A DNA stretch of 64,000 nt from Legionellales bacterium (GTDB lineage: Bacteria > Pseudomonadota > Gammaproteobacteria > JAGOUN01), in NCBI GenBank assembly GCA_027486005.1, contig JAIXPZ010000060.1, positions 3,088-67,087 of the forward strand. Direction: 5' to 3'. This document shows, one piece after another, positions 36,162-55,702 of this stretch. The notes below the pieces were generated by a model that made no database searches, was not told where the DNA came from, and saw nothing but the letters and a program-made list of their open reading frames with translations. How positions within the stretch are numbered: the stretch's first letter is position 1; each line of letters begins with the position of its first letter. Both the position numbers and the translations under genes were made by a program.

Positions 36162-38753
36162 CTATTTCTTCTTTGTCGGCCAAATACTGATCAACATTAC
36201 AATAAATGTCGCTAGGTAAGGCACCATCTGCACCACTAAAATGGTGATCCAACGTTGACCAACTGGATTATTAAAATGCTCCGTAAAACTCATTGCAGCC
36301 ACCGCCACTATCAACGCCAGTAAAATTACAAGTTCTTGGCGAATACTCATTAAACCTGCAAATAGCGCCCCTCGTTTTTCATTTTTTGGGGTGCGCAAAA
36401 AAGGTAAATTATTGGTGAATAACCCTCTGAGCGTTCCCCTAGCGATAGTATGCGTGAGTGATAAACCTGCCAAAAATGCACCAAAGGTTTGCCCAATAGT
36501 GCACGGCACACGCGCACGATAAAGCCACAGGCTTCGTAAAATCTTAAAGCTGAATATTCCAATAGTTGGCAACAAAAATGCGCCGGCAGGCACTTCATAG
36601 TGAATAGGATCGTACAACAGAAGCGCGGTGAGAGATAAACTCATTAGGGTAAATATCAACGCTAATGCATCTGAAAACCACGGCAACCAACCCGCTAAAA
36701 AATAATAACGCTGCGCTGCTGTTAAAGGCGATTTTCTGAAGGGTAAAAAATTACGCCAATGTTTTTTAAGAATCTGCATTGCGCCATAGACCCAACGAAA
36801 TCTTTGTCCTCGATAAGCAGAGAACGTATCTGGCATTAAGCCTTGCCCCAAGGATTTATTGGCATAAACAGAATCATAACCGGCTTCATACAAACTCAAT
36901 CCCAATTCGCTATCTTCAGTAATACACCATTGTGCCCAACCACCCATTTGTATTAATGCAGTCTTGCGAATCAAGGTCATTGTACCATGTTGAATAATGG
37001 CGTTATATTCATTGCGCTGTACCATACCAATATTAAAAAATCCCGCATATTCCCAATAGCAACAGGCTTTAAATCCATTTTCTTTGCTATCGCGATAATC
37101 TTGCGGCGATTGCACAAACGCGACTTTTTCATTATCGAAATATGGCACCATTGACCTCAACCAATCCGGTGACACTTTATAATCACTATCAATCACTGCA
37201 ATAATTTCTACATCGTTTGACGTTTGTTCTAACGCGTAATTCACCGCACCCGCTTTAAAACCTGGCCAATTGTCCAAATGGAAAAAGCGGAAATTCAATC
37301 CTAATCGGGCACAATCTTCTCGCACCGGCTCCCATATTGCTGGATCTTTGGTATTGTTATCAATGACCAACACTTCAAAATTAGGGTAATCCAAACGCGC
37401 GGCTGCTTCTAATGTTTCACGCACCATATCTGGCGGTTCATTATGAATCGGGATATGAATAGAGACTTTAGGATAGCGAAAATTCTCAGGCGGCGATAAT
37501 GGTTGGAACAATCGCACCGTTTTTCGATACCAAATAACGTCGACAATTTCTAAACTTTCCACCAATAAAATTAACACGGCGATAACTTGCATCAACAAAG
37601 TGAGGCCAACAAAAATCAATGATAATTTTGTTTGATAGCGATGGGCCATCACTGAAATAGACCATAATAGCGTTGAAGCGCCTAAATTAGTGACCAAACC
37701 TAAAAATAGTAGCCCAGGTAATTTGATACTACGTCTAGCAAATACAAAAATACCCATCATCACTGCGCTCAATACCGATGCCCATATGGCCCAATACTGC
37801 CATCCAGGAACCGTCAACACATTGCCATTCAAAGGATATTTTGCTTGTCGGTCAGAATCAAAAATACCCCAATACGCACCGACAGAGCCTTCCATAGATA
37901 TTTTCCAAGGCTGGTCAAAGGCTTCAAGAATATAATAATTCACTTGTTCTTTTTCCGCGCGTCGTATCATTTCACGTAAAAAGGTAGCTTGATTTGCACG
38001 TGACGGAATTGAGTGACCAAACGGTTGCCCATCCGATGGCCAGCCCACTTCAGTAATTACGATAGGTTTAGCAGGATATGCTTTTTGTAATTGCATATAC
38101 TGGTCAAAAACAAGATCAACCGCATCATCAACAGCAACACCTGACCAATACGGTGCGAGATGCACCGCAATATAATCGACCTCTGCCACAAGCTTTGGAT
38201 GCGACATCCAATTAAACCATGTTTCTGAGGTGCTCACCGGTCGCTGTTCATACTGTTTCACCTCACGAATATAGTCTATTAGCTGCTGCTCAGAGGTATC
38301 TTTTCGTAGCAGCACTTCATTCCCCACTAAAACACGTACAATATTCTGGGTATTGTTTTGCAAGGTTGCTCGTAGTAAGTCCATTTCTTGGCGATTTTGC
38401 TCTAAATTTTCTCCAATCAATGCCCCAAGCGCCACATTAAGATTATGTTTCGCGGCTAATTGGGGCACTTGGTTCAAACCTCGAGAAACGCTAAAAGTTC
38501 TAACTGAATGCACTTTATTCTCTAGCAAAGCTAAATCACTTTCGATATCAGCAGCACTTGGATATTTATCATTGGTTTGAGTGTCATTTTTACGCATAGG
38601 ATCAAAATCCACACCCATGGTTGTTTTCGTCCAAGGCTGTAATTGCAATGGATTATTGACATAACTCCAAATACTGAAGTTAAGAATAACCAATAAAACG
38701 ATGGCTATTAACGCGGTTAAGATTGCGACTTTTTTTTTCATTGAGGTTGCCAA
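36162..38753 (-). CDS. Bifunctional glycoside hydrolase family 17 / glycosyltransferase family 2 membrane protein (NdvB-like beta-1,3-glucan synthase)
   Basis: 863 aa. The N-terminal periplasmic GH17 domain has LVGNEVL and ITEVGWPS (catalytic Glu pair). The C-terminal GT2 has VIDSDY/DXD and the Q(R)xRW motif (RGQRFRW), flanked by TM helices. The true start is probably the ATG at 38741. Confidence 0.7.
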   Translation of the reverse strand: MATSMKKKVAILTALIAIVLLVILNFSIWSYVNNPLQLQPWTKTTMGVDFDPMRKNDTQTNDKYPSAADIESDLALLENKVHSVRTFSVSRGLNQVPQLAAKHNLNVALGALIGENLEQNRQEMDLLRATLQNNTQNIVRVLVGNEVLLRKDTSEQQLIDYIREVKQYEQRPVSTSETWFNWMSHPKLVAEVDYIAVHLAPYWSGVAVDDAVDLVFDQYMQLQKAYPAKPIVITEVGWPSDGQPFGHSIPSRANQATFLREMIRRAEKEQVNYYILEAFDQPWKISMEGSVGAYWGIFDSDRQAKYPLNGNVLTVPGWQYWAIWASVLSAVMMGIFVFARRSIKLPGLLFLGLVTNLGASTLLWSISVMAHRYQTKLSLIFVGLTLLMQVIAVLILLVESLEIVDVIWYRKTVRLFQPLSPPENFRYPKVSIHIPIHNEPPDMVRETLEAAARLDYPNFEVLVIDNNTKDPAIWEPVREDCARLGLNFRFFHLDNWPGFKAGAVNYALEQTSNDVEIIAVIDSDYKVSPDWLRSMVPYFDNEKVAFVQSPQDYRDSKENGFKACCYWEYAGFFNIGMVQRNEYNAIIQHGTMTLIRKTALIQMGGWAQWCITEDSELGLSLYEAGYDSVYANKSLGQGLMPDTFSAYRGQRFRWVYGAMQILKKHWRNFLPFRKSPLTAAQRYYFLAGWLPWFSDALALIFTLMSLSLTALLLYDPIHYEVPAGAFLLPTIGIFSFKILRSLWLYRARVPCTIGQTFGAFLAGLSLTHTIARGTLRGLFTNNLPFLRTPKNEKRGALFAGLMSIRQELVILLALIVAVAAMSFTEHFNNPVGQRWITILVVQMVPYLATFIVMLISIWPTKKK

Positions 38754-40951: not shown

Positions 40952-41755
40952 GTGGGGAAAATAATTGCAATCGCTAACCAAAAAGGCGGAGTAGGAAAAA
41001 CCACTACAACCGTCAATCTTGCCGCAGCATTGGCGAAGATGGGACGCAAAGTATTATTGGTAGACCTTGATCCACAAGGCAATGCCTCTATGGCATGTCG
41101 CATGGACCGTGATAATTTATCGCTAACATGCAACGAAGTTTTACTTGGCGAAACGAATATTCGCTCGGCAATTGTTCTAACCCCCGAAAATTTTAATCTA
41201 CTTCCCTCTAATGCGGATTTAACAGAAGCTGAAATTCGTTTAGTTCAATTTGATCAACGCGAAATACAATTACGCCAACATCTTTCCATCGTTAAATCTG
41301 AATATGATTACGTTCTTATTGATTGCCCACCTTCGCTTAACATGTTAACAGCTAATGCATTAGTCGCCGCTGACTCGGTGCTCATCCCTATTCAGTGTGA
41401 ATATTATGCACTAGAAGGTCTTTCAAGTTTACTCGACACTATTGAACAATTAAAAAAAGCGGCGAATCCTTATTTGAAAATTGAGGGATTGTTGCGCACA
41501 ATGTTTGATAATCGTAGTCGATTAACTCAAGATATTTCCGCACAGTTACATGAACATTTTCCAAGTCTCGTTTATCGCACCGCCATTCCAAGAAATATTC
41601 GTCTTGCAGAAGCGCCTAGTCATGCGCAGTCGATTATTGCTTATGATATTGGATGCACAGGCGCTGCAGCTTATTTAGCATTAGCGGGAGAAGTGTTACG
41701 GCGCGATCAAGAATTAGTAGCACAAACTCCATTGCAGAATTTGATTAAAAGCTGA
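40952..41755 (+). CDS. parA: Chromosome-partitioning ATPase ParA/Soj
   Basis: The deviant Walker A KGGVGKTT is present. It is 267 aa and sits immediately downstream of rsmG, as in the gidAB-parAB arrangement. Confidence 0.85.
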   Translation: MGKIIAIANQKGGVGKTTTTVNLAAALAKMGRKVLLVDLDPQGNASMACRMDRDNLSLTCNEVLLGETNIRSAIVLTPENFNLLPSNADLTEAEIRLVQFDQREIQLRQHLSIVKSEYDYVLIDCPPSLNMLTANALVAADSVLIPIQCEYYALEGLSSLLDTIEQLKKAANPYLKIEGLLRTMFDNRSRLTQDISAQLHEHFPSLVYRTAIPRNIRLAEAPSHAQSIIAYDIGCTGAAAYLALAGEVLRRDQELVAQTPLQNLIKS

Positions 41756-49109: not shown

Positions 49110-50933
49110 CTAGCTCTTAGTCTTAAGCCTAACCGTTGCAAACAGCGGCGAATCAGTCACTGCAAGATTAGGCGCAGTTTCTAGTGTTTCGATTAAAGGA
49201 CGTAACGTTTCTTTATACGGTAACAGACACACATATGGATCTTCTGCAAGAAGATTACGCTCCCTGCTGCCACAAGGCCATGCGTGAGCAGCCCATAGCA
49301 TATCAAAATATGGCAACACTAAAACATCCGCCGTTCCATCGGTGAGCATCTTTACTCCAGCAGAAATTTTTTCAGCATCCAACGGTTCGCCTGTGTCTCC
49401 TGACGCAACCATTTCTGCTGGCCAATACTCTTTTGCATCTATCAAATTCTTATCTCCGCCAATATTGAAAGTGCGAAAACCTGCTGTTGGCGCTAAATAA
49501 TTCGCAAAAAAATCATTTCTCCAAGGAATAAAAGCAACTATTTTATTTTTATTGATTCGTTGTTTTAGCTCAGAAATAAGCATTTGGTCAATATTAAAAA
49601 ACTGCGTTCGTTGATCAATATTGAGCCGAACTTTTTGTGAAAGATTGGGCAGATTAAGCAAAATGATAATAAAGATTACGCCACTCCAAATCCTCTTACC
49701 TCTTCTTTGCGTCTTCGCAACACAAATCATGACTAACCACCATAACGCGAAAATTTCAAGCGCAGACCAGCGATAAGTCGAACGCATATTGTTGAATCCT
49801 GGCAAAGCTTTAGACATCCAGGCATTTCCTGTTGGCATCACCGCAAGACTGGCCGGCATTGCCGAACCAAGTTGCTGATCTTGTGGCTTGACTGAGTTAA
49901 TTTTTAATGAAGGACCAAGTGACATATAAAATCCAAATACTGCAATCAGGATAATGCCTTTAGCTAGCTTGATGTTTTTCCTGGTCAAACACCATGCAAT
50001 AAGCCCTGCAAGAATAATCGGCAAAGAAAATGTAGTCAGCCATGCAGATGCATCACCAAAATAGAGTTTATCGGAGCGCTCCACACTCAAGCCAAGCACA
50101 TCAAACAGCCAATGAACCCCTTGTGTTGGAATAGCAATAAAAGAGAGATCCAACCCAAATCCTCTGAAGATATCAATCGGCGACTTAGTAAAATGTGCTC
50201 GGCCAATAAAAATACTGTAAAGTGTATAAGCAAAAATAAAACTAGCAATGTGCACAGGTAAAACTATGCGCTTGTAGATCGGACGAAGCTCAACGCGCGT
50301 CTTCATCATAAACGCCAATAAAATAGTGGCGCCAGTGAAAAACATCATGAAGGTATATCCATCCATAAAAACAGATAGAATCACCGCTAACAAATAAAAA
50401 AGAATAACTGATCGAGAAGGTTTATCTAGGGAAGATTCAATCAAAAAAAGCTTCATCGCGGCAAGAAAATAACAAGACAGAAGACCCATGCCTAAAGACA
50501 GCATGCTATATCCTGAATGATTCCAAATAACTGGCATACTCATCCATGCAACCGCTCCCAGCAAAGCCAGCGATCGCGTGTTACCAAATTTGCGCGCAAT
50601 CATATAAGCAGAGCAAAAGGCAACCGTTATCCAAAGCATAACCATAGTAGCATAAGCATCCGGCGCAGCAAAACCTAGTCGAAGTAATAGACTGGCTGGC
50701 CAAGCTCCTGCCAATCCAAAGGCAATCGCCGCCGGCTTGGGAATACCAAAATCATGCGCGTAAATAGTGAAAAAAGAACCATGGGTAAACGACTCGGCAA
50801 ACCCCATAGTCCACACTGCTTGACCTAAGGTGGGAATCATTAAAAAAGGAACTGCGCCTTGTAAAAACACTATAAAAACAAGCGCTATTACTGCGAAAAC
50901 CACTTCCCAAACTGTCCACTTTTGATAACTCAT
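49110..50933 (-). CDS. GT-C-like polytopic membrane glycosyltransferase candidate (11-12 TM plus a ~200-aa C-terminal periplasmic domain)
   Basis: 607 aa with the ArnT/PMT/GtrC-like architecture and a first-loop acidic motif (YAHDFGIP). It is the last gene of the GT2-flippase-like operon. Confidence 0.5.
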   Translation of the reverse strand: MSYQKWTVWEVVFAVIALVFIVFLQGAVPFLMIPTLGQAVWTMGFAESFTHGSFFTIYAHDFGIPKPAAIAFGLAGAWPASLLLRLGFAAPDAYATMVMLWITVAFCSAYMIARKFGNTRSLALLGAVAWMSMPVIWNHSGYSMLSLGMGLLSCYFLAAMKLFLIESSLDKPSRSVILFYLLAVILSVFMDGYTFMMFFTGATILLAFMMKTRVELRPIYKRIVLPVHIASFIFAYTLYSIFIGRAHFTKSPIDIFRGFGLDLSFIAIPTQGVHWLFDVLGLSVERSDKLYFGDASAWLTTFSLPIILAGLIAWCLTRKNIKLAKGIILIAVFGFYMSLGPSLKINSVKPQDQQLGSAMPASLAVMPTGNAWMSKALPGFNNMRSTYRWSALEIFALWWLVMICVAKTQRRGKRIWSGVIFIIILLNLPNLSQKVRLNIDQRTQFFNIDQMLISELKQRINKNKIVAFIPWRNDFFANYLAPTAGFRTFNIGGDKNLIDAKEYWPAEMVASGDTGEPLDAEKISAGVKMLTDGTADVLVLPYFDMLWAAHAWPCGSRERNLLAEDPYVCLLPYKETLRPLIETLETAPNLAVTDSPLFATVRLKTKS

Positions 50934-51820
50934 GATTTTTCTCTGATAATTGATCGTTGATAATATTTCGCTGGGATTAAAAAAGCCATCATAAAAAATA
51001 ATAGATCACCAAGCACCGTAATTATTCGCCCAAGCACCACGGCAACGAGCAAGTCAGCTTCTTTTACAATACTTTTAAGCAATAATAATAAAATTAATTC
51101 TCTGACGCCGGCGCCAGCAGGAGCCCCTGGCGTTACCAACCCGACTAGCCAAGCAATGATATAGGACCCGCCTATCAACAAATATGTTTGCGGAGAAAAT
51201 AGTGAACCGTGCGCAATCACATCGAGAAGAATAATAAATATGCCGCCAGAAATTGCTTGCAACAACAGTAAACTGCCAAATGCTTTTGACACCAATAAAC
51301 CAAACAATCTACTTAGCAAAAAGACGGCCACACCAACAGAAATAACTAATAAAATAATACTTAATAAAGATGAAAACTCAGGCAATATGGCGGGTAAAAT
51401 TAACCAACCATACATGCTTCCCGCAGTGGCAGCTAAACCTAACTCCCAAATTATCGACTTAAGCAATTTTCCACTGGGGGCGCCTACCGACATGCCCATC
51501 ACCTGTCGCCCAGCAAGATGAAAAATATTACCCGGAACATATTTAGCAAGTTGAGAAACACCATACACATGGAACGCCCATAGTCGCGCAACATGAATAT
51601 CAAACGATTTTAGTAAATTCCACCACGTCAGTGTAAACAGTAGACTGCTGGCTAACCCATAAAGTATGGCTAGTCCTGCAATCACTAACCAAGCCACTGG
51701 AGAAATCTGCGAGAGATCAAGACTGCTCCAATGATCATGCAAACGCAAGGCAACAAAACCAACACCTACTATTGCAAAGCCGCTGCCTGCACAATGGAGG
51801 ATTCTTTTTTTTGCGATCAT
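50930..51820 (-). CDS. Flippase-like membrane protein (lysyl-phosphatidylglycerol-synthase TM-region / UPF0104 family)
   Basis: 296 aa with ~8 TM segments. It overlaps both neighbours by 4 nt, and this family is commonly partnered with polyprenyl-phosphate GT2 enzymes. Confidence 0.5.
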   Translation of the reverse strand: MIAKKRILHCAGSGFAIVGVGFVALRLHDHWSSLDLSQISPVAWLVIAGLAILYGLASSLLFTLTWWNLLKSFDIHVARLWAFHVYGVSQLAKYVPGNIFHLAGRQVMGMSVGAPSGKLLKSIIWELGLAATAGSMYGWLILPAILPEFSSLLSIILLVISVGVAVFLLSRLFGLLVSKAFGSLLLLQAISGGIFIILLDVIAHGSLFSPQTYLLIGGSYIIAWLVGLVTPGAPAGAGVRELILLLLLKSIVKEADLLVAVVLGRIITVLGDLLFFMMAFLIPAKYYQRSIIREKS

Positions 51821-52776
51821 TTTTTTAGATCAACATTTTCATTCTTCGATAAATTAGCCGCTTTAATACGAATATCTTCCAGTAGCTGTCGATTCGCAGA
51901 TAACAAATCCGCGACAAAAGCGATAAGTATGGTTTGGAAGCCAATACCTAATAACACTGAGGCCAAGATGAGCGATTGAATATGGCCCTGCCCCGCGCCG
52001 GAAAAATATTTCCATAAAAAATCTAAACCGATTAAAAATCCAGCACCAAATAACAACACTCCAATGGTGCCAAAAAAAGCAAAAGGACGATAAATCACAA
52101 AAATACGAACAATCGTCACAATACTGCGCTTGATGTAAGAAGGAATATTTTTCACTAAGCGAGATTCACGCAAATCTGCATTGACTCGAATCGGCACCGA
52201 GGTAATAGCGATATTTCTTCGCCCTGCTTGAATGATAGTCTCTAAGGTGTAGGTGTAATCATTGAAAACAATCAATTGTTGCGCAGCAACTCGGCTAATC
52301 GCACGAAACCCACTGGGCGCATCAGGAATGTCAGTTTTACTCGCCACCCGAACCGCCCAACTCCCCAATTTTTGTAATAGTTTTTTAATCGGTGAAAAAT
52401 GCCCTATCGTTGAAATCGGTCGCGCTCCAACCACTAAATCCGCTCGGCCTTCAACAATTGGCGAAACAAGCGCGGGAATATCGCTAGCATTGTATTGATT
52501 ATCAGCATCTGTATTAACAATAACGTCCGCGCCAAAATGTAAACATGCATCAATGCCGGACATAAATGCTCGAGCTAAACCTTTATTACCCGCATGCCGT
52601 ACGACATGATCTACTCCATGCGCCTTAGCAACCTCAATGGTATTATCGCTACTTCCATCATCAATAATTAACCACTCAACGCTATCAAACCCTGGAACGG
52701 AGCGAGGTAAGGCAGCTAAAGTAATCGGCAATGATTGCGCTTCATTGAGGCAAGGTATTTGGATGATCAGTTTCAA
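51817..52776 (-). CDS. GT2 polyprenyl-phosphate glycosyltransferase (DPM1/GtrB/ArnC-like)
   Basis: The N-terminus has a CLNEA...IIDDGSSD...TDAD DXD-type GT-A fold. Two C-terminal TM helices are present, as in GtrB/ArnC. Confidence 0.8.
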   Translation of the reverse strand: MKLIIQIPCLNEAQSLPITLAALPRSVPGFDSVEWLIIDDGSSDNTIEVAKAHGVDHVVRHAGNKGLARAFMSGIDACLHFGADVIVNTDADNQYNASDIPALVSPIVEGRADLVVGARPISTIGHFSPIKKLLQKLGSWAVRVASKTDIPDAPSGFRAISRVAAQQLIVFNDYTYTLETIIQAGRRNIAITSVPIRVNADLRESRLVKNIPSYIKRSIVTIVRIFVIYRPFAFFGTIGVLLFGAGFLIGLDFLWKYFSGAGQGHIQSLILASVLLGIGFQTILIAFVADLLSANRQLLEDIRIKAANLSKNENVDLKK

Positions 52777-52920
52777 TGGTTAAAACCCAATCTTTTATAA
52801 ATAAGTCGCCCATTCTAATCTGCGGACATAGGGAAGAGCAACGTTAAATCCGCTAGTTATCTATTTGATCGCCACGATTTCAAAAAGGACACCTAAAGGA
52901 AGTCATAGTAAGCAAATAGT

Positions 52921-53985
52921 TTAAGGTCTAGGCAAACCTCTTTTAATCATAAACTCCACCTCCTCATTTGCATTCATGTATCGAATGACCACTTGAGCAT
53001 TTTTTAACGGATATACTCGAAAAATTTCATCCACAAATCCTTGTCCGATAGCTTTAACCTTTGAAAAATCCAACATAATCCGCGTGAAAGGTTCGAGCCT
53101 AGATAAGAGACGCTTTGCCTGGGATCGCGAGATTAAGCGCTCACCTTCCAACTGACTTAAATCCACCAACAAATCTGTCGCTACAAATGCATAATCTTCT
53201 TGCTCAGTATAGTCATTAAAAATATGCGTAATTTTTCTAGTACTATTTACATTAATTAACATGGAAATTTTTGACCCATTTTTAACGTCACTTTTTTCTA
53301 AAGTCCAATCTTTCTCAAGATTATTTCTATAAAAACATAATTCATTAGCTTCTAAATAAAATTCATCAAAAATACGGGAAGTGAAAAATATCCCCTCGCC
53401 AGTGTGGTTAATTGGATCTGTAGTTAGCTTACCCTTTGTCAAGTGTAACAAGCATTCTCTGTAACTATCAAAATGATAACTCTGTTTAATGCGAGAAAAA
53501 ACCCCAATCCCGTCATCTTGAATCACTAGCGAAAGAGTTTCGCCTACTCGCTGAAATGAGATATCAATTTTTTTTCCCTGTGAATGATCAATGGCATTAT
53601 TTAAAATTTCTGTAAATCCATATTCAAGAATTGAAACAACGCTCTGGTTTAAGCCAATAGTTGGCTTGGCCATGTGAGCCTCCCAAATGCTTACCTCTTG
53701 TAATGCCTTGGTTAACTTTAATGAAAAATGAATAGAATTCGAACTATTTATTTCGTAGCAAGCCTTACGTGTAGTACCTGTTTTTATGATTTTATTCTGC
53801 TGCTGTAACCAATTAAGATGTCGATGAACTGTCATACGACTTACGTTGAACTTTTCCATTGTTACAGTAATAATTTCAACAGGGTGTTTAGGAATAATTT
53901 TAAGCAAAAATGCTCGTATTTCCTCAGGTGACGGAATCATAATCTCTTCTTTTATTTGTAACATGTTACATATAAATAATAACAT
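52921..53985 (-). CDS. Fusion protein: N-terminal winged HTH + GHKL (HATPase_c/RsbW-like) ATPase-kinase domain + C-terminal STAS-like (DUF4325-like) domain
   Basis: HTH: FNVSRMTVHRHLNWLQQQNKI. GHKL N-box/G-box-like: LNNAIDHS...DDGIGVF...GEGIFF. The C-terminal ~100 aa (FSKVKAIGQGFVDEIFRV) resemble STAS-like domains. Confidence 0.45.
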   Translation of the reverse strand: MLLFICNMLQIKEEIMIPSPEEIRAFLLKIIPKHPVEIITVTMEKFNVSRMTVHRHLNWLQQQNKIIKTGTTRKACYEINSSNSIHFSLKLTKALQEVSIWEAHMAKPTIGLNQSVVSILEYGFTEILNNAIDHSQGKKIDISFQRVGETLSLVIQDDGIGVFSRIKQSYHFDSYRECLLHLTKGKLTTDPINHTGEGIFFTSRIFDEFYLEANELCFYRNNLEKDWTLEKSDVKNGSKISMLINVNSTRKITHIFNDYTEQEDYAFVATDLLVDLSQLEGERLISRSQAKRLLSRLEPFTRIMLDFSKVKAIGQGFVDEIFRVYPLKNAQVVIRYMNANEEVEFMIKRGLPRP

Positions 53986-53986
53986 G

Positions 53987-54283
53987 TTACCAAAATAGAT
54001 TCAAGGCGCTGCACTGAAGCTCAGGGACTTTTTGTATCTCATCGATAATAATCGGATAGGTCAATTTATTTTTATTTTGAGCAAGAATTTCCTCGCGCAT
54101 TAAATAGGGCGAATGAGTAAACCTTGTCAATTGGCGTGTATCAAGCAAGTCATAATAAAGTGAGGATGGATATTTTTCTTTTAAAAACAGCGACTTACCA
54201 GTCTGCCTTGCTCCCCATAAAAAAATTGACTGCTTTTCAGGCAAGTGTAGGCTTAAAATTCTTTTATACATTTGACTGTCCAT
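53987..54283 (-). pseudogene. N-terminal fragment of an AAA_14/DUF4143-type P-loop ATPase
   Basis: 98 aa containing Walker A GARQTGKS and Walker B IIIDEIQ, then an immediate stop. Full-length members are ~400 aa. Its stop abuts the start of the HTH-GHKL gene. Confidence 0.5.
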
Positions 54284-54363
54284 TCTTCAAAAAAGACAAC
54301 CAAACGAAATGATGGTAACCAAATGGTTTAAAGTCAACGATTAAAGAAAACAGGCCTTTCATT

Positions 54364-55574
54364 TCAGGATGGCTGCTGCCTACTTGACGATTGAGCCAAT
54401 CTCACCGTTGCAAATAACGAAGAATCAACCACCTCAAGACCAGGTTGCGCCGCCCATAACATATCAAAATAGGGCAACACTAAAACATCCGCCGTTCCAT
54501 CGGTGAGCATCTTTACTCCAGCAGAAATTTTTTTTGCATCTAAAGTGGCGCCTCCTGACGCTAACATTTCCGCAGGCCAATGTTTTTGTGCATCAATCAA
54601 ATTTTTGTCTCCACCAATATTGTAGGCACGAAAACCAGCAGTTGGCGCTAAATAATTGGCAAAGAAAATGTCGTTATCCAAATAGATGCATCGCCAAAAA
54701 AAACACTATCCGATCGTGCTACGCTAAAACCAAGTAAATCTGGCAACCAATGCACCCCTTTCGTTGGGATAGCAATAAAGGAGAGATCAAGCCCCCAACC
54801 TCTAAAGAAATCAATGCTAGCTTTATCGAAATGTGATCGACCAATAAATATTCCATAAAGAGCATACGCTATAATAAAACTTATTATGTGTACCGGCAAA
54901 ACGACTCGCTTCAGCATCGGCCTAAGCTCAATCTGAGTCTTTATCGTAAAAACCAATAAAATAGTTGCGCCAGTGAAAAACATCATGAATGTATATCCAT
55001 CCATAAAAACAGACACTATGGCTGCAAAAAAATATAATATGATTGTTAACCGAGAAGGCTTTTCAGCAGTAGATGTAATTAAAAACAATTTCATTGCCGC
55101 AAGAAAATAAAAAGCCAGCAAACCAATACCTAAAGAAAGCATGCAATAACCTGCATGATTCCAAATAACGGGCATGCTCATCCAGACAATTGCCCCCAGT
55201 AAAGCGGTTGATCGAGTGTTTCCAAACTTACGTGCGATGATATAAGCGGAAAAAAAAGCCACACTTAGCCAAGCCATTATCATGGCTGCATAGACATCTG
55301 GCGCATGCAAACCTAATCGAAGAAATATACTTGCTGGCCAAGCACCCGCTAATCCAAACGCAATAGCCGCGGGCTTGGGGATACCGAAATCATGCGCATA
55401 AATAGTAAAAAAAGAATCATGTACAAACGATGCCGCATATCCCATTGTCCACACTGATTGACCTAAAGTGGGGATCATTAAAAATGGAATAGCTCCTTGT
55501 AGAAACAATACAAAAATATACGCCACCACCGCAAGAATGACTTCCCACGTTTTCCATTTCTGATGATTATCCAT
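54364..55574 (-). pseudogene. Degraded paralog of the GT-C-like membrane protein 49110..50933 (internal deletion plus frameshift)
   Basis: Two overlapping ORFs. The first (54648..55574) matches residues 1-~300 and the second (54364..54681) matches residues ~470-590 of the intact copy. Stretches of >50 nt are identical (e.g. 49321..49372 = 54481..54532). Confidence 0.7.
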
Positions 55575-55702
55575 GATTTTTCTCTGAAAATTGACTTTGC
55601 TTAGCTAGAATTAAAAACGCGAATGCATAGTTGAGCAAGCATTCTAATAAGCAAGCTGTTGAAAAGCAACTTCTAATAAAGCTCTGTTTTTATACTTAGG
55701 CC

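Follow-up and report, generated by a model that had tools for sequence, protein, structure and literature searches.

The locus analysed here raises the question of what a single protein that joins a winged helix-turn-helix (wHTH), a GHKL ATP-binding domain and a STAS-like domain could regulate, and whether it acts together with the truncated ATPase gene and the glycosylation genes that lie beside it in the window, the whole 64-kb stretch of DNA that was analysed. An initial annotation, made from the sequence, had read the fusion as a self-contained switch gated by phosphorylation of its own STAS domain and possibly coupled to these neighbours. What it observed stands as far as the open reading frames (ORFs), the domains and the flanking genes are concerned, except for a start codon said to abut the stop codon of the ATPase fragment. 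Its interpretation mostly fails: the three-domain architecture is upheld, and the ATPase coupling, the control of glycosylation and the gate on a STAS Ser/Thr are not. We use the name HGS for the wHTH/GHKL/DUF4325 family to which the protein belongs.

Start codon, domain architecture and acceptor position of the HGS protein

Both ORFs are present on the minus strand at the positions originally annotated. The longer one (52921..53985) encodes 354 aa and carries 15 extra codons 5' of the true start. The family alignment, in which the N-termini of the homologues match M16 of this ORF, places that start at ATG 53940, so that the HGS gene (52921..53940, minus strand; stop codon at 52921-52923) encodes a protein of 339 aa, identical (100%) to the 339-aa database protein P0001. 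The start codon abutting the ATPase stop codon is therefore a property of the longest possible ORF only, and the 15 extra codons correspond to the predicted HGS promoter and two putative palindromic operators. The window contains one HGS copy, and residue numbers below follow the 339-aa protein.

Pfam searches with the 354-aa ORF returned DUF4325 (E=3.4e-11; 43.1 bits against a cut-off of 23), HATPase_c_2 (28.2 bits against a cut-off of 27.4) and HTH_DeoR (E=3.5e-4), together with a HATPase_c match of 26.1 bits that falls under its cut-off of 26.4. These matches agree with the HTH, RsbW-like GHKL and STAS-like domains called previously. They were the only domains recognised by Pfam, and neither a PP2C phosphatase nor a sensor domain was found in the protein. 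The wHTH domain (53743..53940, minus strand; residues ~1-66) contains the recognition helix SRMTVHRHL. It is followed by a GHKL ATP-binding domain of the anti-sigma Ser-kinase type (53245..53739, minus strand; residues ~68-232), with an N-box (E111/N115), a G1 box (D142xGxG146), a lid (KGKLTTD) and a G2 box (H179xGEG183), and then by a DUF4325/VapS-type STAS-like domain (52924..53235, minus strand; residues ~236-339) bearing an invariant SRSQAKR helix. In alignment A1, whose reference row is the window protein, residues E111, N114/N115, H119, D142, G144, G146, G181 and G183 are invariant, with N115 and G183 retained in all family members (117/117). The N-box (E..N), G1 (DxGxG) and G2 (GxG) ATP-binding motifs of HGS are all intact.

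The AF2 model of the protein (pLDDT 92.6) accounts for the whole 339 aa with the three domains. Its GHKL fold is structurally nearest to genuine anti-sigma factors and anti-sigma kinases, and the STAS-like region, with pLDDT >90 across most of its length, displays the alternating strand-helix topology of STAS domains (DSSP: E254-258, H272-278, E287-291, H300-313, E318-322, H326-335). When the protein and the family profile were searched against PDB sequences, the matches were generic HK/GHKL and wHTH ones, with no solved close relative and none to the CapS and VapS entries, and PADLOC and NCBIfam scans of the protein returned nothing specific, with no PADLOC match.

The family comprises more than 7,700 matches with a length of ~340 aa and at least 1,129 clusters at 50% identity (E<1e-30), nearly all of which align end to end. 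Longer members add no recognised domain except for one RHS-repeat match in P0230. By these comparisons, the window carries an intact representative of a very large family whose fixed architecture is winged HTH, SpoIIAB/RsbW-type GHKL and VapS-type STAS-like (DUF4325). A literature search found no published functional study of this exact HTH-GHKL-STAS architecture, in agreement with the earlier statement that its function is uncharacterised.

The proposed phosphorylation gate presupposes a conserved Ser/Thr in the STAS-like domain. Since hhalign of the HGS C-terminal domain against SpoIIAA and RsbV sequences gave a spurious 11-residue match only, the phospho-site was mapped through VapS, which is itself a DUF4325 protein (E=2.7e-17) and whose S48 has been equated with SpoIIAA S58 and CapS S54 (Chambers et al., EMBO J 2026, PMC13373217, the source used here for CapK/CapS and VapKSC). 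VapS S48 pairs with HGS Q300 in hhalign. This position is occupied by Gln in 113 of the 117 family members, by Arg in two, by Pro in one and by Ile in one, and never by Ser or Thr (0/117). The Gln belongs to a conserved GQ(G/A)F motif, which reads GQG(F) in the window protein at the place of the phospho-Ser of SpoIIAA, CapS and VapS, and HGS lacks a conserved acceptor Ser/Thr at the N-terminus of the second helix. We infer from these alignments that the STAS-like domain of HGS is not a canonical phospho-acceptor, which speaks against the gate as it had been proposed. The invariant Ser residues of the SRSQAKR helix, S271 and S273, could nevertheless represent a displaced acceptor site that allows cis-phosphorylation.

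Neighbouring genes and the low-GC islet

The second ORF of the locus, of 98 aa, had been identified as the N-terminal part of an AAA_14/DUF4143 ATPase, and this assignment is sound: it covers positions 3-78 of the 129 positions of the AAA_14 profile (Pfam, E=7.7e-10), and its Walker A (GARQTGKS) and Walker B (IIIDEIQ) motifs align with those of AAA_14 homologues. It also weakly matches the PADLOC candidate PDC-S01 (E=4e-7). Alignment to all AAA_14 homologues ends at 54017, which leaves codons 1-89 of the ATPase gene (54017..54283, minus strand) followed by a non-homologous tail (53987-54016); the 98-aa ORF thus owes its final nine codons and its stop codon to read-through into the HGS promoter. 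The remainder of the AAA_14 domain and DUF4143 are absent, with nothing past residue ~87 detected in any frame of the window. Intact AAA_14 relatives measure 374-453 aa, so the fragment keeps 89 of ~400 codons, and 12 bp separate its truncation point from the HGS -35 box downstream. Among 156 related HGS loci, an AAA_14 gene occurs within ~6 kb in one, where it is non-adjacent, and the closest relative of the fragment belongs to a different genome, where it is found with further AAA_14 copies and without an HGS partner. As judged from these comparisons, the 98-aa ORF is an unrelated AAA_14 pseudogene whose adjacency to HGS is accidental, and the suggested coupling to a truncated ATPase is not borne out.

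The neighbourhoods of HGS genes vary, and include rpsU/yqeY, tpiA, BrnA and prophage portal or terminase genes. A set of 675 neighbours fell into 507 clusters, the largest of which consists of 14 redundant prophage loci. In a Pfam scan of 150 immediate neighbours, no family exceeded 3/150 and no downstream family recurred. The initial annotation had pointed to gene-neighbourhood conservation as a check on linkage, and no recurrent neighbour class emerged. No sigma factor gene is conserved among these 150 neighbours (Sigma70_r4 in two), PIN is not among the recurrent families (nor is there a PIN gene in the islet of the window), and about eight neighbours match PADLOC. The median upstream gap to a same-strand gene is 191 nt. 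Taken together, the loci compared indicate that HGS stands alone, under its own promoter. Large Pfam-less proteins of 1,173-1,404 aa encoded beside the closest relatives were considered as HGS partners and rejected: they occur in only three distinct genomes, where their genes are convergent to HGS, they are absent from the window, and no operator was found in the parts of their loci that the search covered.

IMG/VR contains 62 HGS matches. As tblastn searches with the window protein and a viral-contig homologue gave no match in 50,697 GenBank phages or 72,556 PLSDB plasmids, these matches may be prophage predictions that include host DNA.

The HGS gene and the ATPase remnant form an islet with a GC content of 35.1%, versus 41-42% in the flanks. 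The islet is bracketed by two copies of an imperfect direct repeat, one at 52879..52928, overlapping the HGS stop codon, and the other at 54286..54335, directly 5' of the AAA_14 start codon. The copies share 80% identity over 50 nt and 72% over 72 nt (blastn E=1e-7), and no further copy was found in the 64-kb window. A host marker protein resembles that of Methylobacter (66-69%), whereas the best named HGS matches are from Ca. Berkiella, Coxiellaceae and Planctomycetota. Because of the low GC content, the different affinities of the host marker and HGS, and the flanking direct repeat, we regard HGS as horizontally acquired, on a ~1.4-kb low-GC islet inside the polysaccharide cluster of what appears to be a Methylococcales-like bacterium.

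The flanking glycosylation module, consisting of a GT2 glycosyltransferase and an LPG_synthase_TM-like protein, and its degraded paralogue are real, as had been noted (76% identity between 54651-55594 and 50013-50953; 83% between 54432-54667 and 49270-49512). The gene downstream of HGS encodes a GT2 glycosyltransferase. Glycosyltransferase families do not recur among the 150 immediate neighbours, and within the 64 kb the operator motif described below is found at the HGS promoter only. For this window the outcome is thus negative: there is no ATPase partnership, and the idea that HGS controls the glycosylation genes finds no support.

Predicted promoter and putative phased operators

The interval 53941-54004, upstream of the true start codon, is taken up by a Shine-Dalgarno sequence, a predicted promoter and two putative operators. 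A consensus scan predicts a sigma-70-type promoter at 53976..54004 (minus strand), composed of a -35 box TTGAAT (54004->53999), a 17-nt spacer and a TG-extended -10 box TATTAT (53981->53976), and the candidate Shine-Dalgarno sequence AAGAAGAG lies at 53951->53944 (minus strand). The proximal operator, the palindrome GTAACATGTTAC (53958..53969), would cover approximately +1 of the predicted transcript. The distal operator, GTAACATGTTAT on the coding strand (53979..53990), lies in the spacer between the -35 and -10 boxes and holds the 'stop codon' of the 98-aa ORF. The two are spaced by 21 bp, from proximal to distal, and the same pair was found in three further loci (L002, L003 and L006). They are the only paired operator sites in the 64-kb window. 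All of these elements (promoter, Shine-Dalgarno sequence and the two operators) are intact and agree with the corresponding ones of relatives with 63-67% identity.

Across the family, the DNA upstream of HGS genes carries a short motif (core GTT-N-ACAA) two to four times, with a phasing of 21-22 bp. An exact 7-mer repeated at 20-23 bp was detected in 88 of 117 upstream regions, compared with 3 of 116 coding-sequence controls and ~5 of 117 shuffled sequences; the other 29 upstream regions contained no such exact repeat. The histogram of repeat spacings peaks at 21 (42 loci), 22 (66), 43 (29) and 44 bp (22). The density of TTGACAA upstream of HGS is ~150 times that in the remainder of the loci, and no second TTGACAA array was found elsewhere in them, in a motif search that covered 64 kb of the window genome and, for the other loci, up to 6 kb to either side of the gene.

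Motif type and HTH recognition helix covary, in support of autoregulation: a helix of the form xRQ[AST][AIV][NSH] accompanies TTGACAA arrays in 36 of 39 loci, and x[RP][TM]T[AVI]HRH accompanies GTTA[CT]AA palindromes in 13 of 15. Given the phased repeats and this covariation, the most likely picture is of an HGS protein that occupies its own promoter as a phased oligomer and is thereby self-repressing. This correspondence between helix type and motif type amounts to an operator code that yields specificity-swap predictions; for instance, replacing SRMTVHRH by SRQAVNKH would retarget the protein to GGTTGACAAT arrays.

Against this reading, a regulator whose sole detectable target, in the sequence covered, is its own promoter has no evident output.

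Candidate mechanisms and comparison with known systems

The best explanation of the locus overall, to which we give somewhat better than even credence, is that of a solitary, horizontally acquired, self-repressing and ATP-dependent HGS switch. The HGS protein would sit on the phased operators at its own promoter and thereby repress itself. Its STAS-like domain would act in cis: it could be a partner or pseudosubstrate that the GHKL domain cannot phosphorylate, or else a ligand-sensing lobe of that domain, like the internal STAS of CapK/VapK. The ATP state, combined with a signal, would alter oligomerisation or DNA binding and cause HGS to leave the promoter, and downstream it might phosphorylate or sequester a target whose gene lies elsewhere.

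A second explanation, which we hold to be a real though minority prospect, is that HGS is a single-gene conflict module (anti-phage or abortive infection), in which a kinase effector, autorepressed and restrained by a pseudosubstrate STAS in cis, would be freed by infection or DNA damage (e.g. ssDNA) to phosphorylate host or phage proteins and halt growth. Its solitary, patchy, low-GC and apparently mobile occurrence would be consistent with such a role, as would its recurrence at prophage edges and, in predicted prophages, between a late regulator and terS. Moreover, the related CapK/CapS and VapKSC are immune regulators, VapKSC guarding against phage Bas42 (PMC13373217), and the adjoining AAA_14 remnant brings its weak PDC-S01 match. 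However, the HGS protein has neither a PADLOC match nor a recognisable toxin domain, defence-related genes make up only the ~8/150 immediate neighbours mentioned above, the phage and plasmid collections contained no tblastn match, and many HGS copies lie between housekeeping genes. A more specific proposal, which we consider unlikely, is a single-gene sensor-effector: the kinase would be parked on the phased operators and held off by the Gln-bearing STAS pseudosubstrate until stress or infection (ssDNA, a fall in ATP) freed it to phosphorylate or sequester a host or phage target such as a sigma factor. If this were true, HGS would define a new class of mobile switch for stress or immunity that consists of one protein and spans more than 1,000 protein clusters.

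HGS might instead be a DNA-tethered anti-sigma factor, whose GHKL domain, in the manner of SpoIIAB and RsbW, would bind and hold a host or phage sigma factor or a sigma-like late activator, with the STAS-like domain competing in cis for that surface and the HTH parking the complex on the phased sites. The structural proximity of the GHKL domain to genuine anti-sigma factors is in line with this idea, as are the Sigma70_r4 matches in 2/150 neighbours, a group of predicted prophages in which HGS comes right after a small protein matching a phage transcriptional-regulator family, and the perfect -35 hexamer TTGACA found inside many operators. We judge it improbable nonetheless: a sigma factor gene is not a conserved neighbour, CapK and VapK, of this kinase type, function without a sigma factor (PMC13373217), and the -35-like core is missing from the operators of other subfamilies, including those of the window.

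The model originally put forward, in which HGS is a self-contained partner switch whose GHKL domain phosphorylates a conserved Ser/Thr of its own STAS domain and which works with the ATPase or controls the glycosyltransferase operon, now has very little chance of being correct. The domain architecture fits it, Rv1364c offers a precedent for cis autophosphorylation (PMC7693655), and the invariant S271 and S273 lie close to where the first STAS helix begins. Against it stand the Gln at the canonical acceptor position in 113/117 members, the lack of conserved AAA_14 or glycosyltransferase linkage (156 loci; 150 immediate neighbours), the reduction of the adjacent ATPase to an 89-codon pseudogene and the restriction of the operators to the HGS promoter; its linkage claims are largely refuted. 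Finally, we give hardly any credence to the islet being decaying junk in which the HGS ORF is intact by chance, as the two pseudogenes on one side (the AAA_14 fragment and a broken 607-aa paralogue) and the position of the final two or three HGS codons within the flanking repeat might suggest, because the ORF is full length with every invariant family residue present and its control region is as well preserved as in relatives.

A self-repressing HGS switch can be compared with several known systems, of which CapK/CapS and VapKSC are the nearest that have been characterised. The premise that RsbW-type kinases and STAS antagonists normally act as separate proteins is overstated, since Rv1364c fuses a GHKL kinase to its STAS antagonist (PMC7693655) and CapK and VapK are ssDNA-activated kinases that carry an internal STAS (PMC13373217). 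GHKL kinase and STAS pairs have been described as DNA-damage sensors that activate immune operons and a toxin-antitoxin system (PMC13373217). In CapK the domains run HTH-STAS-GHKL, and capK invariably precedes capS (STAS-wHTH, phospho-Ser54), with an immune operon usually coming next; the internal STAS of CapK is not its substrate and forms with the GHKL domain a groove that senses ssDNA (PMC13373217). HGS resembles CapK/CapS in combining an anti-sigma-type GHKL kinase with STAS and HTH domains and, probably, in having a DNA-binding component that represses its own promoter cooperatively on repeated or palindromic sites. It differs in its wHTH-GHKL-STAS order, in being one polypeptide without a partner gene, and in the Gln at the acceptor position. 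In hhalign, A1 and VapK matched in the GHKL N-box/G1 region only (E=0.04, probability 1.3%), and CapK and VapK themselves gave no significant Pfam GHKL match.

With VapKSC, HGS shares a DUF4325 domain, at its C-terminus and in the antitoxin VapS, and an associated GHKL kinase. VapS stands alone as a 116-aa protein, carries phospho-Ser48 and inhibits the PIN nuclease VapC (PMC13373217), and PIN.4-DUF4325 gene pairs have also been described (PMC5499597); HGS, in contrast, has Gln at the Ser48 position, its own HTH and no PIN neighbour. The N, G1 and G2 boxes and the presence of a STAS-fold partner are common to HGS and the SpoIIAB-SpoIIAA and RsbW-RsbV pairs. Unlike these, HGS has no sigma factor, separate antagonist or phospho-Ser, is fused to a DNA-binding domain, and is solitary and mobile instead of residing in a sigma-factor operon. 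Rv1364c of Mycobacterium tuberculosis unites sensor, PP2C, GHKL kinase and STAS in one protein (PMC7693655). It possesses a PAS-type sensor, PP2C and a phosphorylatable STAS and lacks an HTH, whereas HGS lacks the PAS-type sensor, PP2C and the acceptor Ser. As for the neighbouring remnant, the 98-aa ORF shares the Walker region with AAA_14/DUF4143 ATPases (COG1373-type) and is missing DUF4143.

Clustered at 50% identity, the HGS family yields no fewer than 1,129 clusters and is much larger than the 443 capK and 289 vapKSC loci reported (PMC13373217). Its members unite DNA-binding, kinase and STAS parts in a single solitary protein, with Gln in place of the phospho-acceptor. If self-repression and regulation in cis hold true, HGS would provide a compact and testable model of a partner switch rewired into a one-component regulator.

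Domain structure and boundaries of the HGS gene

The 354-aa ORF on the minus strand (52921–53985) matches the Pfam families DUF4325 ('STAS-like'; E=3.4e-11, 43.1 bits against a cut-off of 23), HATPase_c_2 (28.2 bits, cut-off 27.4) and HTH_DeoR (E=3.5e-4), with HATPase_c (26.1 bits) just under its cut-off of 26.4. Together with the AAA_14 match of the neighbouring 98-aa ORF (53987–54283, minus strand), these results confirm the domains called in the initial annotation, and the HTH-GHKL-STAS protein, termed HGS, belongs to Pfam DUF4325 and to the HATPase_c_2 fold class. HGS homologues consist of about 340 aa and begin at the equivalent of M16 of the long ORF, and a database record contains a 339-aa protein identical to that of the window, placing the HGS start codon at ATG 53940 (minus strand). 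Since promoter and operator elements are predicted upstream of this ATG, the 15 'extra' N-terminal codons are best read as promoter and operator DNA.

The 98-aa ORF matches AAA_14 profile positions up to 78 of 129 (E=7.7e-10) and, weakly, the PADLOC candidate PDC-S01. All its AAA_14 homologues cease to align at 54017, after ...IIIDEIQKVPEL (codon 89), and hence the final nine codons and the stop are interpreted as read-through into the HGS promoter. A search of every frame of the window revealed no further piece of the AAA_14 gene. The abutting start and stop codons, from which a module coupling HGS to a truncated ATPase had been proposed, were thus an artefact of choosing the longest ORFs.

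The HGS architecture is very widespread and varies little. There are more than 7,700 matching proteins about 340 aa long, a library clustered at 50% identity contains 1,129 representatives at E<1e-30 and 4,592 at E<1e-3, and nearly all of the best 150 clustered matches align end to end. Among the longer members checked for added domains, none was recognised except an RHS repeat in P0230, a 684-aa protein with a 326-aa N-terminal extension; this match may reflect a gene-calling read-through artefact or an RHS locus that has captured an HGS module. No functional study of this widespread family was found in the literature, and it represents a good experimental target.

Phased operators upstream of HGS genes

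Upstream of ATG 53940, the coding (minus) strand carries a predicted Shine-Dalgarno sequence AAGAAGAG (53951->53944), a proximal palindrome GTAACATGTTAC (53969->53958), a predicted TG-extended -10 box TATTAT (53981->53976), a distal second copy of GTAACATGTTAC (53990->53979) and a predicted -35 box TTGAAT (54004->53999) separated from the -10 box by a 17-nt spacer. The two palindromes, regarded as putative operators, are spaced by 21 bp, and no other pair occurs in the 64-kb window. Single sites that differ from the 12-mer at two positions are located at 41337 and 47616; the former, the unpaired palindrome TTAACATGTTAA (41337–41348) inside ORF 40952–41755, resembles the HGS operator and is probably a chance occurrence.

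Of 117 non-redundant HGS upstream regions, 88 contained an exact 7-mer recurring at a distance of 20–23 bp, compared with 3 of 116 coding controls and about 5 of 117 shuffled sequences, and the histogram of repeat spacings exhibited sharp peaks at 21 bp (42 loci), 22 bp (66), 43 bp (29) and 44 bp (22). The motifs share a GTT-N-ACAA core and form several classes: GGTTGACAAT as three or four direct repeats; GTTTACAA repeats; a pair of palindromes, either TTATAAC-TA-GTTATAA or TTGTAAC-TA-GTTACAA; and, in the window and the loci of its closest relatives (L002, L003 and L006), two palindromes TTGTAAC-AT-GTTACAA, with one site detected in locus L018. TTGACAA is approximately 150 times denser in HGS upstream regions than in the remainder of those loci, which contains no second array.

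The motif class tracks the recognition helix. TTGACAA arrays accompany the helix xRQ[AST][AIV][NSH] in 36 of 39 loci, GTTA[CT]AA palindromes accompany x[RP][TM]T[AVI]HRH in 13 of 15, and the ACATGTTAC subtype pairs with SRM-T-HRH. In our analysis, no evidence for the predicted binding of the winged helix to the phased sites is stronger than this covariation. Because these sites overlap the promoter, HGS is most likely a repressor of its own gene that binds as an oligomer arrayed along a single DNA face. The autoregulatory operator code of the family appears to be new.

Genomic setting and origin of the HGS cassette

The HGS gene was solitary in the 156 loci sampled, with a median gap of 191 nt to the same-strand upstream gene. 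Its neighbours are varied (rpsU/yqeY/dnaG/rpoD, tpiA, a BrnA antitoxin, prophage portal or terminase genes): 675 flanking ORFs fell into 507 clusters, the largest of which covered 14 loci from redundant predicted prophages, and no Pfam family recurred in more than three of 150 immediate neighbours. An AAA_14 gene lay within about 6 kb of HGS at one locus only (L050), non-adjacent; glycosyltransferases were not recurrent neighbours in the 156 loci; and the AAA_14 fragment is closest (80% identity) to an AAA_14/DUF4143 gene that is likewise broken and adjoins two more copies in an unrelated housekeeping context without HGS. Consequently, neither the ATPase coupling nor the control of glycosylation genes suggested initially finds comparative support.

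Several local associations were observed. The closest HGS relatives adjoin very large Pfam-less proteins of 1,173–1,404 aa (L002, 7064–10585; L003, 7133–11134; L006, 7140–11252; also L011, 7062–11276), encoded convergently with HGS in three genomes; the L011 protein, encoded co-directionally, falls outside the cluster that the others form, and the window contains no gene of this type. In one predicted-prophage group (IMG/VR loci L129–L148), HGS lies between a small protein matching phrog_36, a phage transcriptional-regulator family, and small terminase, large terminase and portal genes, and in two further loci (L010 and L013) HGS, at the edge of a prophage, points away from an SPP1-type portal gene in divergent orientation. 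The JGI contig of protein P0123, from a related genome, carries three adjacent AAA_14/DUF4143 genes between lolB/hemA/prfA and prs/rplY/pth, one of them broken into pieces of 78 and 194 aa; in this lineage, genes for such ATPases seem to occur in several copies and to decay often.

In the window, the flanking genes have a GC content of 41–42%, against 35.1% for the HGS gene and 36.4% for the AAA_14 fragment, which together make up a low-GC islet. The NdvB-like glycosyltransferase encoded at 36162–38753 (minus strand; 863 aa, GT2 and GH17 domains), taken as a host marker, is 66–69% identical to Methylobacter and Methylovulum proteins, which places the source in a probable Methylococcales-like gammaproteobacterium, whereas the best named HGS relatives belong to Ca. 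Berkiella, Coxiellaceae and Planctomycetota. An imperfect direct repeat (52879–52928 and 54286–54335; 80% over 50 nt, E=1e-7; 72% over 72 nt if continued into the region of the AAA_14 start codon) flanks the islet on both sides and has no other copies in the window. The copy downstream of HGS, which overlaps its stop codon, may be what is left of an attachment site or of a second AAA_14 5' region that has been almost wholly deleted. Furthermore, HGS relatives 63–67% identical retain the same promoter/operator layout in quite different genomic places. Taken together, these features indicate that HGS is a horizontally acquired promoter-plus-gene cassette, next to a degenerate member of AAA_14, a second gene type that is mobile and present in several copies.

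On the opposite side lies an older pseudogene of a 607-aa membrane protein (54364–55594, compared with 49110–50953), with 76% DNA identity over the N-terminal 308 codons, an internal deletion of about 500 bp and a 236-bp piece 83% identical, a degree of divergence that points to an old duplicate, or to what recombination left behind, and away from a recent duplication. The intact three-gene module (49110–52776, minus strand) encodes a GT2 enzyme carrying a membrane region at its C-terminus, an LPG_synthase_TM-like membrane protein of 296 aa and the 607-aa polytopic protein, which has no Pfam match, and may constitute a lipid-carrier-based surface glycosylation system.

Proposed switch and comparison with known systems

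In the closest characterised systems, CapK is an ssDNA-activated HTH-STAS-GHKL kinase and CapS a STAS-wHTH repressor released from DNA by phosphorylation of Ser54, while VapKSC comprises a STAS-GHKL kinase (VapK), a STAS antitoxin with phospho-Ser48 (VapS) and a PIN nuclease (VapC) (PMC13373217, 2026). The published VapS sequence is a DUF4325 protein (E=2.7e-17), which explains the coupling of one PIN subgroup to DUF4325 genes (PMC5499597). Profile alignment places VapS S48 opposite Q300 of HGS (339-aa numbering), within a conserved GQ(G/A)F motif and at the start of helix 300–313 of the predicted structure; across 117 members this position is Gln in 113, Arg in two, Pro in one and Ile in one, and never Ser/Thr. 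The GHKL ATP-binding residues (E111, N115, D142xGxG146, G181xG183) are invariant. Thus, the enzyme looks active and its own STAS-like domain, predicted not to be phosphorylatable at the usual site, would not be a canonical phospho-acceptor. The invariant SRSQAKR helix, with S271 and S273, may provide a displaced acceptor site or make contact with an anion or nucleic acid.

On balance, we lean towards HGS being a solitary, self-repressing, ATP-dependent switch. The winged HTH would hold the protein on its phased operators and the GHKL domain would bind ATP. In cis, the STAS-like domain would serve either as a partner or pseudosubstrate that cannot be phosphorylated or, as the internal STAS of CapK/VapK does, as a lobe sensing a ligand; a signal would then alter oligomerisation and DNA binding. 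Domain architecture, solitary occurrence, the operators and the Gln substitution are established by comparison, and regulation in cis, the signal and the output are inferred. A one-gene conflict module with the kinase as effector, in keeping with the mobility and prophage locations of HGS and with CapK/CapS and VapKSC acting in immunity, is unlikely: there is no defence-island enrichment, HGS itself gave no PADLOC match and only about 8 of 150 immediate neighbours did, and tblastn against GenBank phages and PLSDB plasmids returned no match. We consider a DNA-tethered anti-sigma factor improbable, HGS having no associated sigma factor, and the cis-phosphorylation switch envisaged initially, linked to the ATPase or glycosylation genes, likewise improbable given the Gln at the acceptor position; that HGS is a relic deserves least credence.

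HGS is a member of none of the known systems, differing from CapK/CapS, VapK/VapS, SpoIIAB-SpoIIAA and Rv1364c in domain order, partner genes and the acceptor Ser, and from anti-sigma switches also in the missing sigma factor. Rv1364c offers a precedent for a kinase and its antagonist fused in one polypeptide (PMC7693655), and in its mode of action HGS would, by analogy, come closest to the modules CapK/CapS and VapK/VapS and to the classical SpoIIAB-SpoIIAA switch.
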